From NCBI GenBank assembly GCA_015059015.1, contig SVBG01000008.1, positions 21,022 through 85,021 on the forward strand: 64,000 bases of DNA, in the 5' to 3' direction. Numbering within the stretch: position 1 is the first letter of the stretch; every line of letters begins with the position of its first letter. A program made the position numbers and the translations under genes. A model generated the notes under the pieces. It was not told the DNA's origin, did not search any database, and worked only from the letters and a program-made list of their open reading frames with translations. Below, piece after piece: positions 33,406-38,166 of this stretch. This DNA is from Erysipelotrichaceae bacterium. Its GTDB lineage: Bacteria; Bacillota_I; Bacilli_A; ML615J-28; CAG-313.

Positions 33406-36078
33406 ATGTTTAAAGGATTAAAAAAATTATTTGACCCATCATATAAAGAATTAACAAGATGTGAAAAGATTGCTGATAACGTTATTGCTCTTGCTGATAC
33501 TTATAAAGCAATGAGTGAAGAAGAACTTAAAAATCAGACTAATATTTTTAAAGAACGTCTTGCAAATGGTGCATCTTTAGATGATATTATGGTTGAAGCG
33601 TTTGCTACTGCAAGAGAAGCATCTACAAGAGTACTTGGGATGACTCCTTTTAGAGTGCAAATCATTGGTGCTGCTGCAATGCATTTTGGTAATATTGCAG
33701 AAATGAAAACAGGTGAAGGTAAAACACTTACTTCTGTTATGGTTGCATATTTAAATGCATTAACTGGTCGTGGTGTTCACATTGTTACAGTTAATGAATA
33801 CTTAGCAACACGTGATGCTACTGAAATGGGTGAAGTTCATAAATATTTAGGACTTACAGTAGGCTTAAACTTAAGAGAATATAGTAGTGAAGAAAAACGT
33901 GCTCAATATGCATGTGATATTACTTATTCTACAAATAATGAACTTGGATTTGACTATTTAAGAGACCATATGGTAGTTTATAAAGAAGATATGGTTCAAC
34001 GTCCTGAATTATTCTTTGCTATTGTCGATGAAGTTGACTCAATCTTAGTCGATGAAGCAAGAACACCATTAATTATTTCTGGTGGTGCTAAACAAGGATA
34101 TAATTTATATGAACAAGCTAATACATTCTGTAAAAGACTGACTGAAGATGTTGATTTTGAAATTGATGAAAAGTCAAAACATGCATCTCTTACTCCTGAA
34201 GGGATTGTTAAAGCTGAAGAATATTTCCATTTAGATAACTTATATGATATTAGTAATGTAGAATTATTACATCGTATTAATAATGCATTAAGAGCTAATT
34301 TCATTATGAAAAATCAAGTAGACTATGTTGTTCAAGATGGTCAAATTATAATTGTTGACCCATTTACTGGTCGTTTAATGCATGGTCGTCAATGGAGTGA
34401 AGGTCTTCATCAAGCTATTGAAGCAAAAGAAGGCGTTGAAATTAAGAAAGAAACTAGAACTCTTGCTACTATTACATTCCAAAATTATTTTAGAATGTAT
34501 GCTAAACTTGCTGGTATGACAGGTACTGCTAAAACTGAAGAAGAAGAATTTAGAGATATTTATAATATGTTAGTTGTAGAAATTCCTACAAATGTTCCTG
34601 TTATTAGAGTTGATGATCCTGATTTAATTTATTTTTCTGAAAAGGCTAAATATGAAGCAATTTCTGAAGAAATTAAACGTCGTCATGAACTTGGTCAACC
34701 AATTCTAGTTGGTACTATTTCAATTGAAACATCTGAATTGTTATCTTCTATTTTAAAGAGAAAAGGTATTCCTCATAATGTTTTAAATGCTAAACAACAT
34801 GCTAGAGAAGCAGATATTATTTCTCACGCAGGTGAAAAAGGTGCTGTTACTATCGCAACAAATATGGCAGGGCGTGGTACGGATATTAAACTTGGTGAAG
34901 GTGTTCGTGAACTTGGTGGTCTTGCAGTGCTTGGTACAGAACGTCATGAATCACGTCGTATTGATAATCAGTTAAGAGGTCGTTCTGGTCGTCAAGGTGA
35001 CCCAGGATATAGTAGATTCTATTTATCAACAAAAGATGAATTATTAATTCGTTTTGGTGGAGATAGACTTGAAAGAATGTTATTAATGATCACTGATAAA
35101 GATGCATCTGGTGAAATGGCTCCAATTGAATATAAACCATTCTCTGGTGTAGTTGAAAGTGCTCAAAAGAAAATTGAAGGCCAAAACTATGATAGACGTA
35201 AGAGTGTTGTTGAATATGATGAAGTTTTAAGAAAACAACGTGAAGTTATTTATGGTCAAAGAAAAGATATTTTATTCTTAGATGATATTGAACCAACAAT
35301 TTATAAAATGATTGAAAATGTTGCTTATCGTGAAGTTGCAAAATATGCAGACTTAAACGATCCATCAAAAATTGATGCAATTCGTTTTATGAAAGAGTTT
35401 GTTATTAGATATTTTGATCAAGGTTATATTATGGTTCCATGTCCAAAATGTCAAAAAGTTCAACGAGTTCATGATGGTATTCCATCTCGTTGTACAAATC
35501 CTGAGTGTCGTTTAGAATTTACAGTAACAAGACGTAGAGATACTGATGCACAAAAAGCAATTAAAAATACTATTTCAATTGAAGAAATTGAAGGAAAGAC
35601 TTTAGTAGAGGTTCAAGAGTACATTTATAATGTATTAAAAACAAATCTTGATTCTAAAAAAGCTGATGCAGATCCTAATAATTACAAAGAATTCTTAAAA
35701 CGTAATTTATTAAGTGTTGTAGATAAACATTGGATGGATCATATTGATCAAATGAGTACACTTCGTCAAAGCGTTTCTCTTCAATCATATGGTCAAGTAA
35801 ATCCACTTCGTGAATATCAAGAAATTGGTTTTGAAATGTTTAGTAAGATGATTGAATCAATTGAATCTGAAACTGTTGCACTTATTAACTGTAGATTTAT
35901 TCCTGTTACAATGGGTGAACGTGAAAGAGTTGCTAAAATTGTAGGTACATCTGGTGGATCTAGTGATGATGATGGTAAGAGAAAGCCAGTTGTTAATAAA
36001 ACTAAAAAAATAGGTCCTAATGAACCTTGTCCATGTGGTTCAGGTCGTAAATATAAGCATTGTTGTGGACGTAAATAA
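33406..36078 (+). CDS. secA: Protein translocase ATPase SecA
   Basis: MKTGEGKT, DEVDS, ATNMAGRGTDI, QLRGRSGRQGDPG, C-terminal CPCGSG.KYK.CC. Confidence 0.98.
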   Translation: MFKGLKKLFDPSYKELTRCEKIADNVIALADTYKAMSEEELKNQTNIFKERLANGASLDDIMVEAFATAREASTRVLGMTPFRVQIIGAAAMHFGNIAEMKTGEGKTLTSVMVAYLNALTGRGVHIVTVNEYLATRDATEMGEVHKYLGLTVGLNLREYSSEEKRAQYACDITYSTNNELGFDYLRDHMVVYKEDMVQRPELFFAIVDEVDSILVDEARTPLIISGGAKQGYNLYEQANTFCKRLTEDVDFEIDEKSKHASLTPEGIVKAEEYFHLDNLYDISNVELLHRINNALRANFIMKNQVDYVVQDGQIIIVDPFTGRLMHGRQWSEGLHQAIEAKEGVEIKKETRTLATITFQNYFRMYAKLAGMTGTAKTEEEEFRDIYNMLVVEIPTNVPVIRVDDPDLIYFSEKAKYEAISEEIKRRHELGQPILVGTISIETSELLSSILKRKGIPHNVLNAKQHAREADIISHAGEKGAVTIATNMAGRGTDIKLGEGVRELGGLAVLGTERHESRRIDNQLRGRSGRQGDPGYSRFYLSTKDELLIRFGGDRLERMLLMITDKDASGEMAPIEYKPFSGVVESAQKKIEGQNYDRRKSVVEYDEVLRKQREVIYGQRKDILFLDDIEPTIYKMIENVAYREVAKYADLNDPSKIDAIRFMKEFVIRYFDQGYIMVPCPKCQKVQRVHDGIPSRCTNPECRLEFTVTRRRDTDAQKAIKNTISIEEIEGKTLVEVQEYIYNVLKTNLDSKKADADPNNYKEFLKRNLLSVVDKHWMDHIDQMSTLRQSVSLQSYGQVNPLREYQEIGFEMFSKMIESIESETVALINCRFIPVTMGERERVAKIVGTSGGSSDDDGKRKPVVNKTKKIGPNEPCPCGSGRKYKHCCGRK

Positions 36079-36086
36079 TAAAAATA

Positions 36087-36116
36087 AAACAAGCTTAAGG
36101 AAACTTAAGCTTGTTT
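36087..36116 (+). terminator. Hairpin between secA and prfB
   Basis: aaacaagcttaag-gaaa-cttaagcttgttt. Confidence 0.7.
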
Positions 36117-36146
36117 AAATTATACTTTAATAAAAGAGGTTTTGAT

Positions 36147-37250
36147 ATGGAAAAATTTGAAATTGTTAAAGCAAAAGATGATTTTACTAAAAGACTAAAC
36201 GCGATAAAAAAAGTAATTGACTATGATAATTTAAAGTTAAAAATTAAAGAATTAGAAGGTAAAATGCTTGCTGATGATTTCTGAAGTGATCAAGCGAATG
36301 CTTCTAAAATTATTAATGAGTGTAATGAATTAAAAGAGAATTTAAATACTTATGAAAAATTAGTTAATAATTTAGAAGAAATAGCTTTAGTTTTAGATTT
36401 TGATGATGAAGAATTATATTTATTAGTTGAAGAAAATATTAATAATTTAGAAAAAGCTTTAAAAACTTTTGAAAATGAGCTATTATTAGATGGTGAATTT
36501 GATAAGAAAAATGCTATTATTGAACTTCATCCTGGTGCTGGAGGGACAGAGAGTCAGGACTGGGCTTTGATGCTGTATCGCATGTATAAACGATATGCTG
36601 AACGTCATAATTTTAAGTTTGAATTAATTGATTATCAAGAAGGTAATGAAGCAGGTATTAAGAGTGTTACTTTTAGTATGAATGGTCGTCATGCGTATGG
36701 AATGTTAAAAGGTGAAGGTGGAGTACATAGATTGGTTAGGATTTCTCCATTTGATTCTGCGTCACGTCGACATACATCGTTTGTTTCTTGTACTGTTATT
36801 CCAGATATTGATGAAGATATTGAAATTGACATTAAAGATGAAGATTTAAGAATTGATACTTATCGTGCAAGTGGTGCTGGTGGACAACACATTAATAAAA
36901 CTGATTCCGCAGTTCGTATTACACATTTACCTACTGGTATTGTTGTTTGTTCTCAAAGTCAAAGAAGTCAAATTCAAAACCGTGAAAAGGCTATGCAAGT
37001 ATTAAAATCTAGACTTTATCAAAAAGAACATGAAACGCTTGAACAAAAGAAAAAAGAAGCTGCTGGTGAAATGATGGAAAATGGTTGGGGTAGTCAAATT
37101 AGAAGCTATATTTTACATCCGTACTCATTAGTAAAAGATCATAGAACAAATGTTGAAAGTAATCAACCACAAGTAGTATTAGATGGTGATTTAGATGAGT
37201 TTTTAATTACTTATTTACAATGGCTAAAAAAAGGTGATGAAAATGTTTAA
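36147..37250 (+). CDS. prfB: Peptide chain release factor 2 (367 codons) with an in-frame TGA at codon 46
   Basis: AAGAGGT RBS, ATG 36147; one reading frame throughout; HPGAGGTESQDW, RISPF, GGQ, WGSQIRSY motifs; only interruption is TGA 36282-36284. The ORF track shows only the part from 36567. Confidence 0.93.
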
Positions 37251-38166
37251 GAAGATGAATAAAAAACTTAAAAATTTCATTTTTATAAATATTGGAGTAA
37301 TGGGACTTGCACTATCATTTAGTTTCTTTTTATCACCATTTGGTCTTGTTACCGGTGGTATAGGTGGTATTGCAATAAACGTAATTAATATTTTAGAAAA
37401 ATTTAATATTGAAATTAATTCATCTTATCATACAATAATAGAATCAGTTATTATGATGGTAATTAATATTGTATTACTTATACTAGCTTTATTATTAATA
37501 GGAAAAGAATTTTTCTTTAAAACACTTTATTGTTCTATTGCATATCCTATTTATACATTTTTGTTTGGTGAACTTGCAACGCTTGTTAAGTTTACTGAAT
37601 TATTACCCATTAATTCATCTGATATAGGTGGAATGCTAATAATAGTCTTATTTTCAGCACTTCTTAGTGGTGTAAGTATTGGTATTGCAATTAAATATGG
37701 TGCTTCAACTGGTGGTATTGATATAATTGAGAAAATTATGTTAAAGTATTTCAATATTCCATATTCTGTAACTTTATTTGTATGCGATGGAATTACTATT
37801 GTTGCTGCAAGTATACTATCAACTAATTTATTACCTATATGTTATGGTGCTATTTACATGTGGCTAATGGGTAAATTAATTGATTCTGTGGTATTTGGAG
37901 GATTTAGAAGTTATAGTGTATCTATTATCACATCTAAACCAGATATAATTAAAACTTTTATTTTAGAAAATGTAAATCGTGGTTTAACTATAGTTGAAGC
38001 AGAAGGTGGTTATACTGGTAAAGATTTAAAAATGATTATTTGTGTTATGACAAGTAGTGAAGTAAGTTTAGTTAGAGGTAATATTAAAAATCTTGATGAT
38101 AATGCTTTTATGTATATATCACAAACTTCAGAAGTAAGTGGGATCGGTTTTACTAAAGAAAGGTAG
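37243..38166 (+). CDS. YitT-family membrane protein
   Basis: TGGIGGIA, GASTGGIDI, RG.T....GGYT motifs. Confidence 0.88.
   Translation: MFKKMNKKLKNFIFINIGVMGLALSFSFFLSPFGLVTGGIGGIAINVINILEKFNIEINSSYHTIIESVIMMVINIVLLILALLLIGKEFFFKTLYCSIAYPIYTFLFGELATLVKFTELLPINSSDIGGMLIIVLFSALLSGVSIGIAIKYGASTGGIDIIEKIMLKYFNIPYSVTLFVCDGITIVAASILSTNLLPICYGAIYMWLMGKLIDSVVFGGFRSYSVSIITSKPDIIKTFILENVNRGLTIVEAEGGYTGKDLKMIICVMTSSEVSLVRGNIKNLDDNAFMYISQTSEVSGIGFTKER

Follow-up and report, generated by a model that had tools for sequence, protein, structure and literature searches.

An in-frame UGA conserved at codon 46 of prfB in an Erysipelotrichaceae clade and its probable readthrough under feedback from release factor 2

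Release factor 2 (RF2), the product of prfB, is the only factor that terminates translation at UGA, and the +1 frameshift through which it regulates its own synthesis is a textbook example of recoding. How, then, is RF2 made from a prfB that has an early UGA and no frameshift site? The question is raised by the prfB at 36147–37250 in a 64,000-nucleotide stretch from an Erysipelotrichaceae bacterium (contig SVBG01000008.1, positions 21,022 to 85,021; G000:C12:21022–85021), referred to here as the window. The assembly (GCA_015059015.1; G000) comprises 2.01 Mb in 14 contigs with 26–29% G+C. Codon 46 of this gene, where most relatives have a conserved Trp codon, is TGA, and the same TGA recurs in all nine species of one clade. 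On the comparative evidence described below, some functional recoding of this UGA very probably occurs. We further consider it probable, with less certainty, that prfB in G000 and its clade is made by programmed UGA readthrough, with RF2 feedback as the working mechanism.

The gene is built of the following elements.

36134–36139, forward strand: Shine–Dalgarno-like AAGAGG, 7 nucleotides ahead of the ATG, read directly in the sequence
36147–37250, forward strand: prfB as a whole, 368 codons with one internal stop
36147–36281, forward strand: codons 1–45, the N-terminal part of RF2, with the ATG at 36147–36149; the protein is conserved across the clade
36282–36284, forward strand: in-frame TGA at codon 46, between LADDF and SDQANASK; proposed site of readthrough, with Trp as the most likely residue
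36285–36293, forward strand: 3' context AGT GAT CAA, of which the clade form is A(G/C)(T/A) (G/A)AT CAA
36285–37247, forward strand: codons 47–367, 321 sense codons, with SPF at 36744–36752 and GGQ at 36879–36887
37248–37250, forward strand: TAA stop of prfB, read directly in the sequence

This is the arrangement that the initial annotation of the window had described, from the ribosome-binding site and ATG through the TGA and the intact SPF and GGQ motifs to the TAA, and the letters bear it out. The read-through protein (P0001) scores 497.2 bits against the TIGR00020 prfB model (cut-off 370) over residues 12–357, and the RF1 models stay under their cut-offs. Pfam places PCRF at residues 31–214 and RF-1 at 223–333; codon 46 falls within the PCRF domain, and the RF2 class holds only if the TGA is read through. 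The stop-codon recognition tripeptide SPF (residues 200–202) and the catalytic motif GGQ (residues 245–247) are both intact. Among the four Trp codons of the gene, the first is the TGA and the rest are not. The tryptic peptide spanning codon 46 of the G000 RF2 is MLADDFWSDQANASK. No second RF2 gene was found in G000, where the sole other match is the RF1 paralogue (35% identity).

The TGA is not an error of sequencing. Contigs of four public runs from four studies (X7, X8, X9 and X11) span 36282–36284 and do not differ there, and the A at 36284, whose confirmation had been set as a check, is real. In a search of 40 relatives, prfB with one TGA was found in seven other species of the same genus, with identities from 98% down to 64%, and an eighth species, G009, has a prfB fragment at a contig end in which TGA likewise stands at codon 46. 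The recurrence that the initial annotation had named as a test is therefore complete within the clade: TGA occupies this Trp codon in 8/8 full-length genes and in the partial G009 gene, that is, in 9/9 species. No second lesion is present in any of the eight full-length genes. Of the 22 relatives examined outside the clade, 18 carry TGG and four carry TAT at codon 46; F45, W46 and D48 each recur in 75% or more of these relatives, which confirms the conserved F-W-x-D motif named in the initial annotation. The genus was represented by 11 species, of which nine have TGA and G004 has TGG; no RF2 was found in the G005 assembly, which is 71% complete. Across the order, prfB matches were obtained in 98 of 106 genomes, and TGA was seen only in the eight full-length clade genes; of the other 90 matches, 86 had no stop and four had one TAA or TAG, which in the one inspected (L028) is the gene's own end.

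A maximum-likelihood RF2 tree was computed with column 46 excluded (quick search, no bootstraps; 30 rows, none dropped). The TGA genes lie on one side of a branch with a support of 97 in the Shimodaira–Hasegawa-like approximate likelihood-ratio test (SH-aLRT), which corresponds to one change, and the TGG-bearing G004 is their sister. As judged from this tree, the prfB TGA has a single origin in a monophyletic clade and has been kept through deep divergence (RF2 identity to 64%). The nine species form one clade, so they are not independent observations, and all of the genomes are metagenome-assembled. A class-wide search of 401 genomes (399 scored, 373 with a match) gave TGA only in G000 among the 150 matches listed; 264 further matches lie beyond these, and absence elsewhere in the class is not implied. 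A scan of metagenomes for TGA and TGG alleles matched at least 118 stretches, and three of the 80 loci examined were RF2 genes. All three were TGG, 45–50% identical to P0001 and from outside the clade, which makes the scan uninformative on polymorphism.

The elements of the classical mechanism are missing from this gene. Codons 23–26 read GTA ATT GAC TAT, and the reading frame is unchanged across the whole of prfB. Neither the CUU-UGA-C shift site nor an internal Shine–Dalgarno sequence is present in the G000 gene: GAT GAT TTC precedes the TGA, an A follows it and no purine-rich Shine–Dalgarno sequence lies upstream. The frame is also kept after the TGA in 8/8 full-length clade genes. The initial annotation was right that codons 24–25 are ATT GAC with neither element around them, and had concluded that this prfB lost its +1 frameshift. 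The site is indeed absent, with the qualification that a frameshift-split prfB occurs in 0/98 of the order's prfB matches, which are full-length and in frame, so that the absence of the frameshift long predates the TGA.

The ratio of nonsynonymous to synonymous substitution rates (dN/dS) was calculated pairwise by the Nei–Gojobori method, which is saturated at depth. Downstream of the TGA it is 0.05–0.34 in 28/28 clade pairs; over the 45 upstream codons the three closest pairs give 0.10, 0.12 and 0.10, and the G010–G007 and G001–G002 pairs give 0.27 and 0.29. Values well below 1 on both sides had been set as a check, and the downstream pairs and the three closest upstream pairs agree with it. 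Divided by downstream identity, N-terminal identity comes to 0.60, 0.75 and 0.96 in three divergence bins of clade pairs, and to 0.65, 0.65, 0.70 and 0.86 in pairs outside the clade. These comparisons indicate that the gene is under purifying selection on either side of the TGA. The first 45 residues show the constraint of an ordinary RF2, as would be expected only if the protein includes them. A restart behind the stop offers no bypass either. Past the TGA, G000 has no in-frame ATG, GTG or TTG until 36567, which is 94 codons away and already behind the GGTESQDW region, so a product started there would lose much of RF2; in five other clade species, the first such start lies 27–96 codons on, at unconserved positions. 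Programmed readthrough is expected to leave a stop at a fixed position in several species, flanked on either side by constrained coding sequence, and this pattern is found here. Both alternatives named in the initial annotation were rejected: a decaying, dispensable RF2, on the grounds of conservation in nine species and purifying selection, and a base-call error, on the grounds of four independent runs and eight other species with the same TGA.

Elsewhere in the genome UGA still serves as a stop codon. G000 has 1226 stop-to-stop frames with 200 codons or more, of which 931 end in TAA, 227 in TAG and 68 in TGA. Past the TGA, the frame stays open for a median of 2 codons, and in a single case for 50 or more. 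In samples of 32–80 kb from each of five other clade genomes, the TGA-ended share of frames of at least 150 codons is 6/56, 8/53, 3/20, 6/48 and 8/62; in five genomes with TGG at codon 46 (G004 and four family members of other genera) it is 10/59, 6/65, 10/51, 4/38 and 5/62. A depletion of TGA stops in the clade was not seen in these samples (10.7–15% versus 8–20% in the TGG genomes). The whole of G000 was also scanned for in-frame TGA preceded by an open frame that contains a start, followed by 80 or more open codons and without a start close by. The scan gave 22 candidates, of which we inspected, besides prfB, the three with more than 190 open downstream codons and one shorter candidate. One of them looks like a real gene, on contig C8, and brings the credible in-frame TGA genes to two including prfB. 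The statement that prfB holds the only internal TGA is accordingly true of the window and fails genome-wide by this one further case. The genetic code is table 11, and not the table 4 code in which UGA means Trp.

Which tRNA would read the UGA at codon 46? ARAGORN reported 29 tRNAs in G000, an incomplete set, among which no UCA tRNA and no selenocysteine tRNA was found and only one tRNA-Trp, with the anticodon CCA.

G000:C7:207427–207500, outside the window: tRNA-Trp(CCA), the sole one, with C9, U11:A24, an unpaired C27:U43 and a 4-bp anticodon stem

A search for a Trp-like anticodon arm with UCA in 11 genomes of the genus gave a single hit, which is not a tRNA. The initial annotation had suggested looking for a tRNA-Trp(UCA) or for D-arm variants; the former was not found, and a variant of the latter kind, A24, is present in the tRNA-Trp(CCA). 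C9 and A24 occur in the tRNA-Trp of 9/9 clade genomes, and 27:43 is unpaired in 7/9 (six C:U, one U:C). A9C and G24A are reported to promote the reading of UGA by tRNA-Trp(CCA), as is an unpinned 27:43 pair (C27A, G43U), the latter demonstrated experimentally in Escherichia coli, and genomes with no tRNA-Trp other than such variants are reported to keep their UGA stops (PMC13092985). The supplementary tables of that report list genomes and orders with a 4-bp-stem tRNA-Trp and may already include the present lineage (PMC13092985). Selenocysteine recoding is not indicated in G000: no tRNA-Sec, no SelA (a search with positive controls in 2/14 control genomes) and no conserved hairpin after the UGA were found; SelB was not searched for. 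The base after the TGA is A in 8/8 full-length clade genes and in 10/22 relatives, and residue 47 is Ser or Thr (AGT, ACT or ACA) in 9/9 clade genes and in 0/22 relatives. An A after UGA favours readthrough by tRNA-Trp (Engelberg-Kulka 1981; Kopelowitz 1992; both cited in PMC10540940).

The second credible gene with an in-frame TGA encodes a surface protein.

G000:C8:41141–45046, minus strand, outside the window: surface protein gene, 1302 residues, with TGA at codon 867

The protein has a signal-peptide-like N-terminus and Listeria–Bacteroides repeats, and the TGA is immediately followed by an atrophied Ig domain (aBig_2) and a GH18 glycosidase domain, with no in-frame start within 49 codons past the TGA. 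This junction, in which the TGA precedes T-x-x-D-R-(I/L/V) and both flanks are long open frames, recurs in two clade members (G001 and G002) and in three genomes of the sister family (G029, G039 and G090); for G069 and G093 there is a search flag only. Every instance has the context TGA ACN. In homologues that lack the TGA, the linker has Tyr, Phe, Trp or another residue (Y-T-D-E-E-R-V in G092, for example). This TGA looks like a site of programmed UGA readthrough that would give a short form and a long, glycosidase-bearing form. Its distribution suggests that a usable leakiness of UGA existed in the order before prfB captured it.

For prfB, the mechanism may be pictured as follows. The ribosome would begin at the ATG at 36147 and, 45 codons later, meet UGA in the A site, with the P site occupied by Phe-tRNA and A following the UGA. 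There RF2, which would free a 45-residue peptide, would compete with tRNA-Trp(CCA), the sole near-cognate, which would insert Trp and give full-length RF2. Since RF2 is the only UGA terminator, the readthrough share would drop as RF2 activity rises, and this would place RF2 synthesis under negative feedback. In Bacillus subtilis, UGA readthrough rises from 6% to 19–54% in prfB mutants (Karow 1998, cited in PMC7918605). A one-base change from TGG to TGA in a frameshift-free prfB lineage would in this way have rebuilt the logic of the classical +1 frameshift. The comparative tests favour the RF2 autoregulation by UGA readthrough that the initial annotation had put forward, with TGA still a stop. 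The feedback itself is deduced from RF2 being the sole UGA terminator and from the published B. subtilis genetics. We infer the insertion of Trp, the efficiency of readthrough and the feedback as a selected property.

Several observations weigh against this reading or limit it. The upstream dN/dS is 0.3–1.16 in distant pairs, a range that, with 45 codons and saturated dS, is weak either way. Folding of eight clade sequences (–36 to +102) with RNAalifold gave 0 consensus pairs, and a conserved RNA structure at the TGA was dropped as a candidate; the G000 site alone folds better than its shuffles (z = –2.39, 2/200 as good), a property not common to the other species. An A(C/G) context follows 7/106 TGA stops and 94/1355 TAA and TAG stops (Fisher p = 1.0). 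TGA stops show no avoidance of this context, so that context alone fails to explain a selective readthrough of the prfB UGA; three of the TGA-AC frames resemble antisense, non-coding ones. tRNA genes are incompletely represented in the assemblies (29 in G000), and a tRNA(UCA) could have been overlooked. Two of the clade members, G001 and G002, have G:U at 27:43, and a tRNA-Trp with C9, A24 and C:U also occurs in 8/13 family genomes outside the clade; in the sister family, it mostly has A9 with G:U. Because these features are shared outside the clade, they are older than the prfB TGA and not its trigger, and the suppressor-like tRNA-Trp is, on this comparison, at most a permissive background. 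The runs that cover the site are DNA contigs; two RNA runs contained 0.05–0.07 of the sampled words. Finally, the TGA could be retained merely for lowering the output of RF2, and not for feedback.

This last point may be taken as an explanation in its own right: readthrough occurs, the TGA is kept only to cut RF2 output and its responsiveness to RF2 has no selective value. In its favour, few stops in G000 are specific to RF2 (68 of 1226 long frames), low TGA usage has been linked with a low RF2 need (Prince, Lin and Feaga preprint) and no additional stimulatory element was found at the site. However, a weaker ribosome-binding site or promoter would cut output without wasted 45-codon peptides, and any UGA in prfB is inevitably sensitive to RF2, as in the B. 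subtilis prfB mutants (PMC7918605), so that the feedback would exist whether it is selected or not. The placement of the TGA at only the first of four Trp codons fits a cheap early checkpoint, with a chance expectation of 1 in 4. We regard a mere damper of this kind as improbable. Similarly unlikely, in our judgement, is that the clade represents a stage in a change of the genetic code from UGA as stop to UGA as Trp, as proposed for Providencia siddallii PSAC. On that view, a change from TGG to TGA in prfB would have cut RF2, UGA would have become ambiguous and the lineage would be drifting to code 4, with the TGA a cause or a symptom of decaying termination and no regulator. The organisms are low-GC (26–29%) gut Bacilli whose related database records include Acholeplasmataceae and Tenericutes, their tRNA-Trp bears UGA-reading features and a second gene has a conserved in-frame TGA. 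An in-frame UGA in prfB is described as the trigger of the code change in PSAC (PMC10540940), and RF2 may be decaying in the Mycoplasmatota that retain it (Prince, Lin and Feaga preprint). Nevertheless, G000 has two credible in-frame TGA genes in 2.0 Mb, compared with 125 of 610 genes in PSAC (PMC10540940), TGA stops are undepleted in the clade, no tRNA(UCA) was found, and the state is stable to 64% RF2 identity in a prfB that is otherwise undamaged and under strong purifying selection. Moreover, the sister family, with TGG or TAT in its prfB, shares the second in-frame TGA, and UGA leakiness therefore did not begin with the prfB change. A code change in progress is compatible with programmed readthrough of prfB; a stable, self-limiting ambiguity would satisfy both.

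The remaining explanations are far less probable. That the UGA is decoded by something other than tRNA-Trp, namely as selenocysteine, by Cys or Arg near-cognates or by an unseen suppressor tRNA, draws on the incompleteness of the tRNA set (29 genes in G000) and on the Tyr at codon 46 of 4/22 relatives, which means that the residue is not strictly Trp. We consider it very unlikely given that neither tRNA-Sec nor SelA was found in G000, that no conserved hairpin follows the UGA as a possible selenocysteine insertion sequence, that Trp is ancestral (18/22 relatives, including the sister G004) and that tRNA-Trp(CCA) is the near-cognate for UGA according to the literature (PMC10540940; PMC7918605; PMC13092985). 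Least credible of all is an inactivated pseudogene, or an error of sequencing or assembly, with full RF2 not made. By table 11 the gene formally counts as interrupted, and an automatic annotation would flag it as broken, but the identical TGA occurs in nine species and in the contigs of four independent runs, the eight full-length genes have no second lesion and a dN/dS of 0.05–0.34, and the TGA stops in use need RF2, for which G000 has no second gene.

Further features were recorded around prfB and in the rest of the genome.

33406–36078, forward strand: secA, upstream of prfB and given as context only; NF009538 SecA model, 1048.8 bits against a cut-off of 814
36087–36116, strand not assigned: perfect hairpin of 13 pairs in the gap between secA and prfB, 30 nucleotides ahead of the prfB start, with a terminator-like score on the minus strand
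37234–38166, forward strand: open reading frame of 310 residues that overlaps the end of prfB by 17 nucleotides

The hairpin is followed by merely a short T run on the plus strand and is also present in the upstream flanks of the two closest species. The first residues of the open reading frame at 37234–38166 look hydrophobic, and no NCBIfam match was found for it. In contig C7 (27642–28002, outside the window), ARAGORN predicted a transfer-messenger RNA (tmRNA) with the tag peptide GNTNYSFAC; tmRNA tag peptides usually end in Ala-Ala, which this one does not. Two patterns at stop codons were considered and set aside. In G000, a second in-frame stop within 3 codons follows 35/68 TGA, 272/931 TAA and 53/227 TAG stops. 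Such backup stops were dropped as a sign of a leaky UGA: in the small samples from relatives they are inconsistent after TGA (2/6, 2/8, 2/3, 1/6 and 4/8 in the clade; 5/10, 0/6, 1/10, 1/4 and 1/5 outside), and they may stem from ATGA gene overlaps; many TGA stops overlap the ATG of the next gene. An in-frame run-on of at least 100 codons follows 42 of 227 TAG-ended frames versus 54 of 931 TAA-ended frames. Recoding of TAG was rejected, since 41 of the 42 have an in-frame start no more than 10 codons away, and in 23 GGAG or GAGG lies at the TAG; the run-on frames are tightly packed genes in the same frame, with a Shine–Dalgarno sequence overlapping the stop.

Programmed readthrough of prfB, as proposed here, would stand close to several known systems. 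It would share with the +1 frameshift prfB of E. coli and most bacteria the gene, an early RF2-specific UGA, the competition between RF2 and a recoding event, and the negative feedback. The abortive product is short in both, with 45 residues in the clade and about 25 in E. coli (PMC5009743; Prince, Lin and Feaga preprint). In contrast to the frameshift gene, the clade prfB is in frame throughout, lacks CUU-UGA-C and the internal Shine–Dalgarno sequence and has A, not C, after the UGA; its UGA stands in place of the conserved Trp46 codon, and decoding by a near-cognate tRNA would be what competes with RF2. A design of this kind was entertained for RF2 before release factor genes had been sequenced, with an early UGA read by a near-cognate tRNA when RF2 is short, and the review of Atkins et al. 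(2016; PMC5009743), which recalls it, states that an early in-frame UGA with an open reading frame in the same frame occurs in none of many sequenced bacterial RF2 genes. The gene, the logic and the type of recoding are each known, in a combination stated not to exist. All Mycoplasmatota with prfB are reported to lack the frameshift, with the suggestion that they do not need autoregulation; in its available text, this prfB survey contains no occurrence of the word 'readthrough' (Prince, Lin and Feaga preprint).

The nearest parallel is PSAC, the leech symbiont 'Candidatus Providencia siddallii', in which prfB likewise changed from TGG to TGA, tRNA-Trp(CCA) is kept, A follows the UGA and some readthrough yielding RF2 has been proposed (PMC10540940). 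PSAC differs in being one lineage with in-frame UGA in the 125 of 610 genes mentioned above, and in having its prfB marked as a pseudogene and read as the trigger of a code change (PMC10540940). In the clade, the TGA is fixed in nine species and TGA stops are retained, and the G000 genome has about two such genes. Besides Providencia, the full-text literature, with most subscription journals and supplements outside its coverage, gave no natural bacterial prfB expressed through readthrough of an in-frame UGA. Among the described UGA-reading variants of tRNA-Trp(CCA), namely the Hirsh G24A, A9C and the 4-bp stem of Blastocrithidia and some bacteria (PMC13092985), the clade tRNA has C9 and A24, with 27:43 unpaired in 7/9. 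The 'Blastocrithidia-like' class excludes tRNAs with A9C or G24A, and the clade tRNA would fall outside it; the accessible text of that report makes no mention of prfB (PMC13092985). The clade tRNA features are spread more widely than the prfB TGA. In plants, eRF1 likewise governs its own expression through termination efficiency on its own mRNA, by readthrough and nonsense-mediated decay, and differs in being eukaryotic, in using the gene's own stop codon, coupled to mRNA decay, and in having no internal stop at a sense position (PMC5397192). A giant-virus release factor gene expressed by readthrough and frameshifting differs as viral, in a eukaryotic host and with frameshifting combined (PMC5009743).

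These comparisons bear on how such genomes are read and on how the present state may have come about. Annotation pipelines will label the clade prfB genes as pseudogenes and the genomes may score as RF2-less, by which inference of the genetic code would be misled. If prfB is read through as proposed, a simpler design than the frameshift, an in-frame UGA read when RF2 is scarce, exists in this clade and arose there once from a frameshift-free prfB. This would make it testable whether RF2 feedback is itself under selection, as it appears here to have been rebuilt after loss, how a cell tolerates a UGA-reading tRNA-Trp while retaining UGA stops, and what a stable UGA=Trp intermediate looks like in relatives of the Mollicutes. 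A wider reading, which we offer tentatively and would not expect to hold in full, is that UGA has a stable, context-dependent double meaning across the order: a tRNA-Trp(CCA) with a weak or open 27:43 pair (in one family together with C9 and A24) would read some UGAs as Trp, typically before A(C/G), and this would be used to make two forms of secreted, glycosidase-bearing surface proteins and would have been captured by prfB in one genus as an RF2 loop setting the balance between stop and sense. If that were true, these bacteria would be a living example of a regulated intermediate in the change of UGA to Trp, and their prfB would be the first natural case of the RF2 readthrough autoregulation that was proposed before release factor genes were sequenced.

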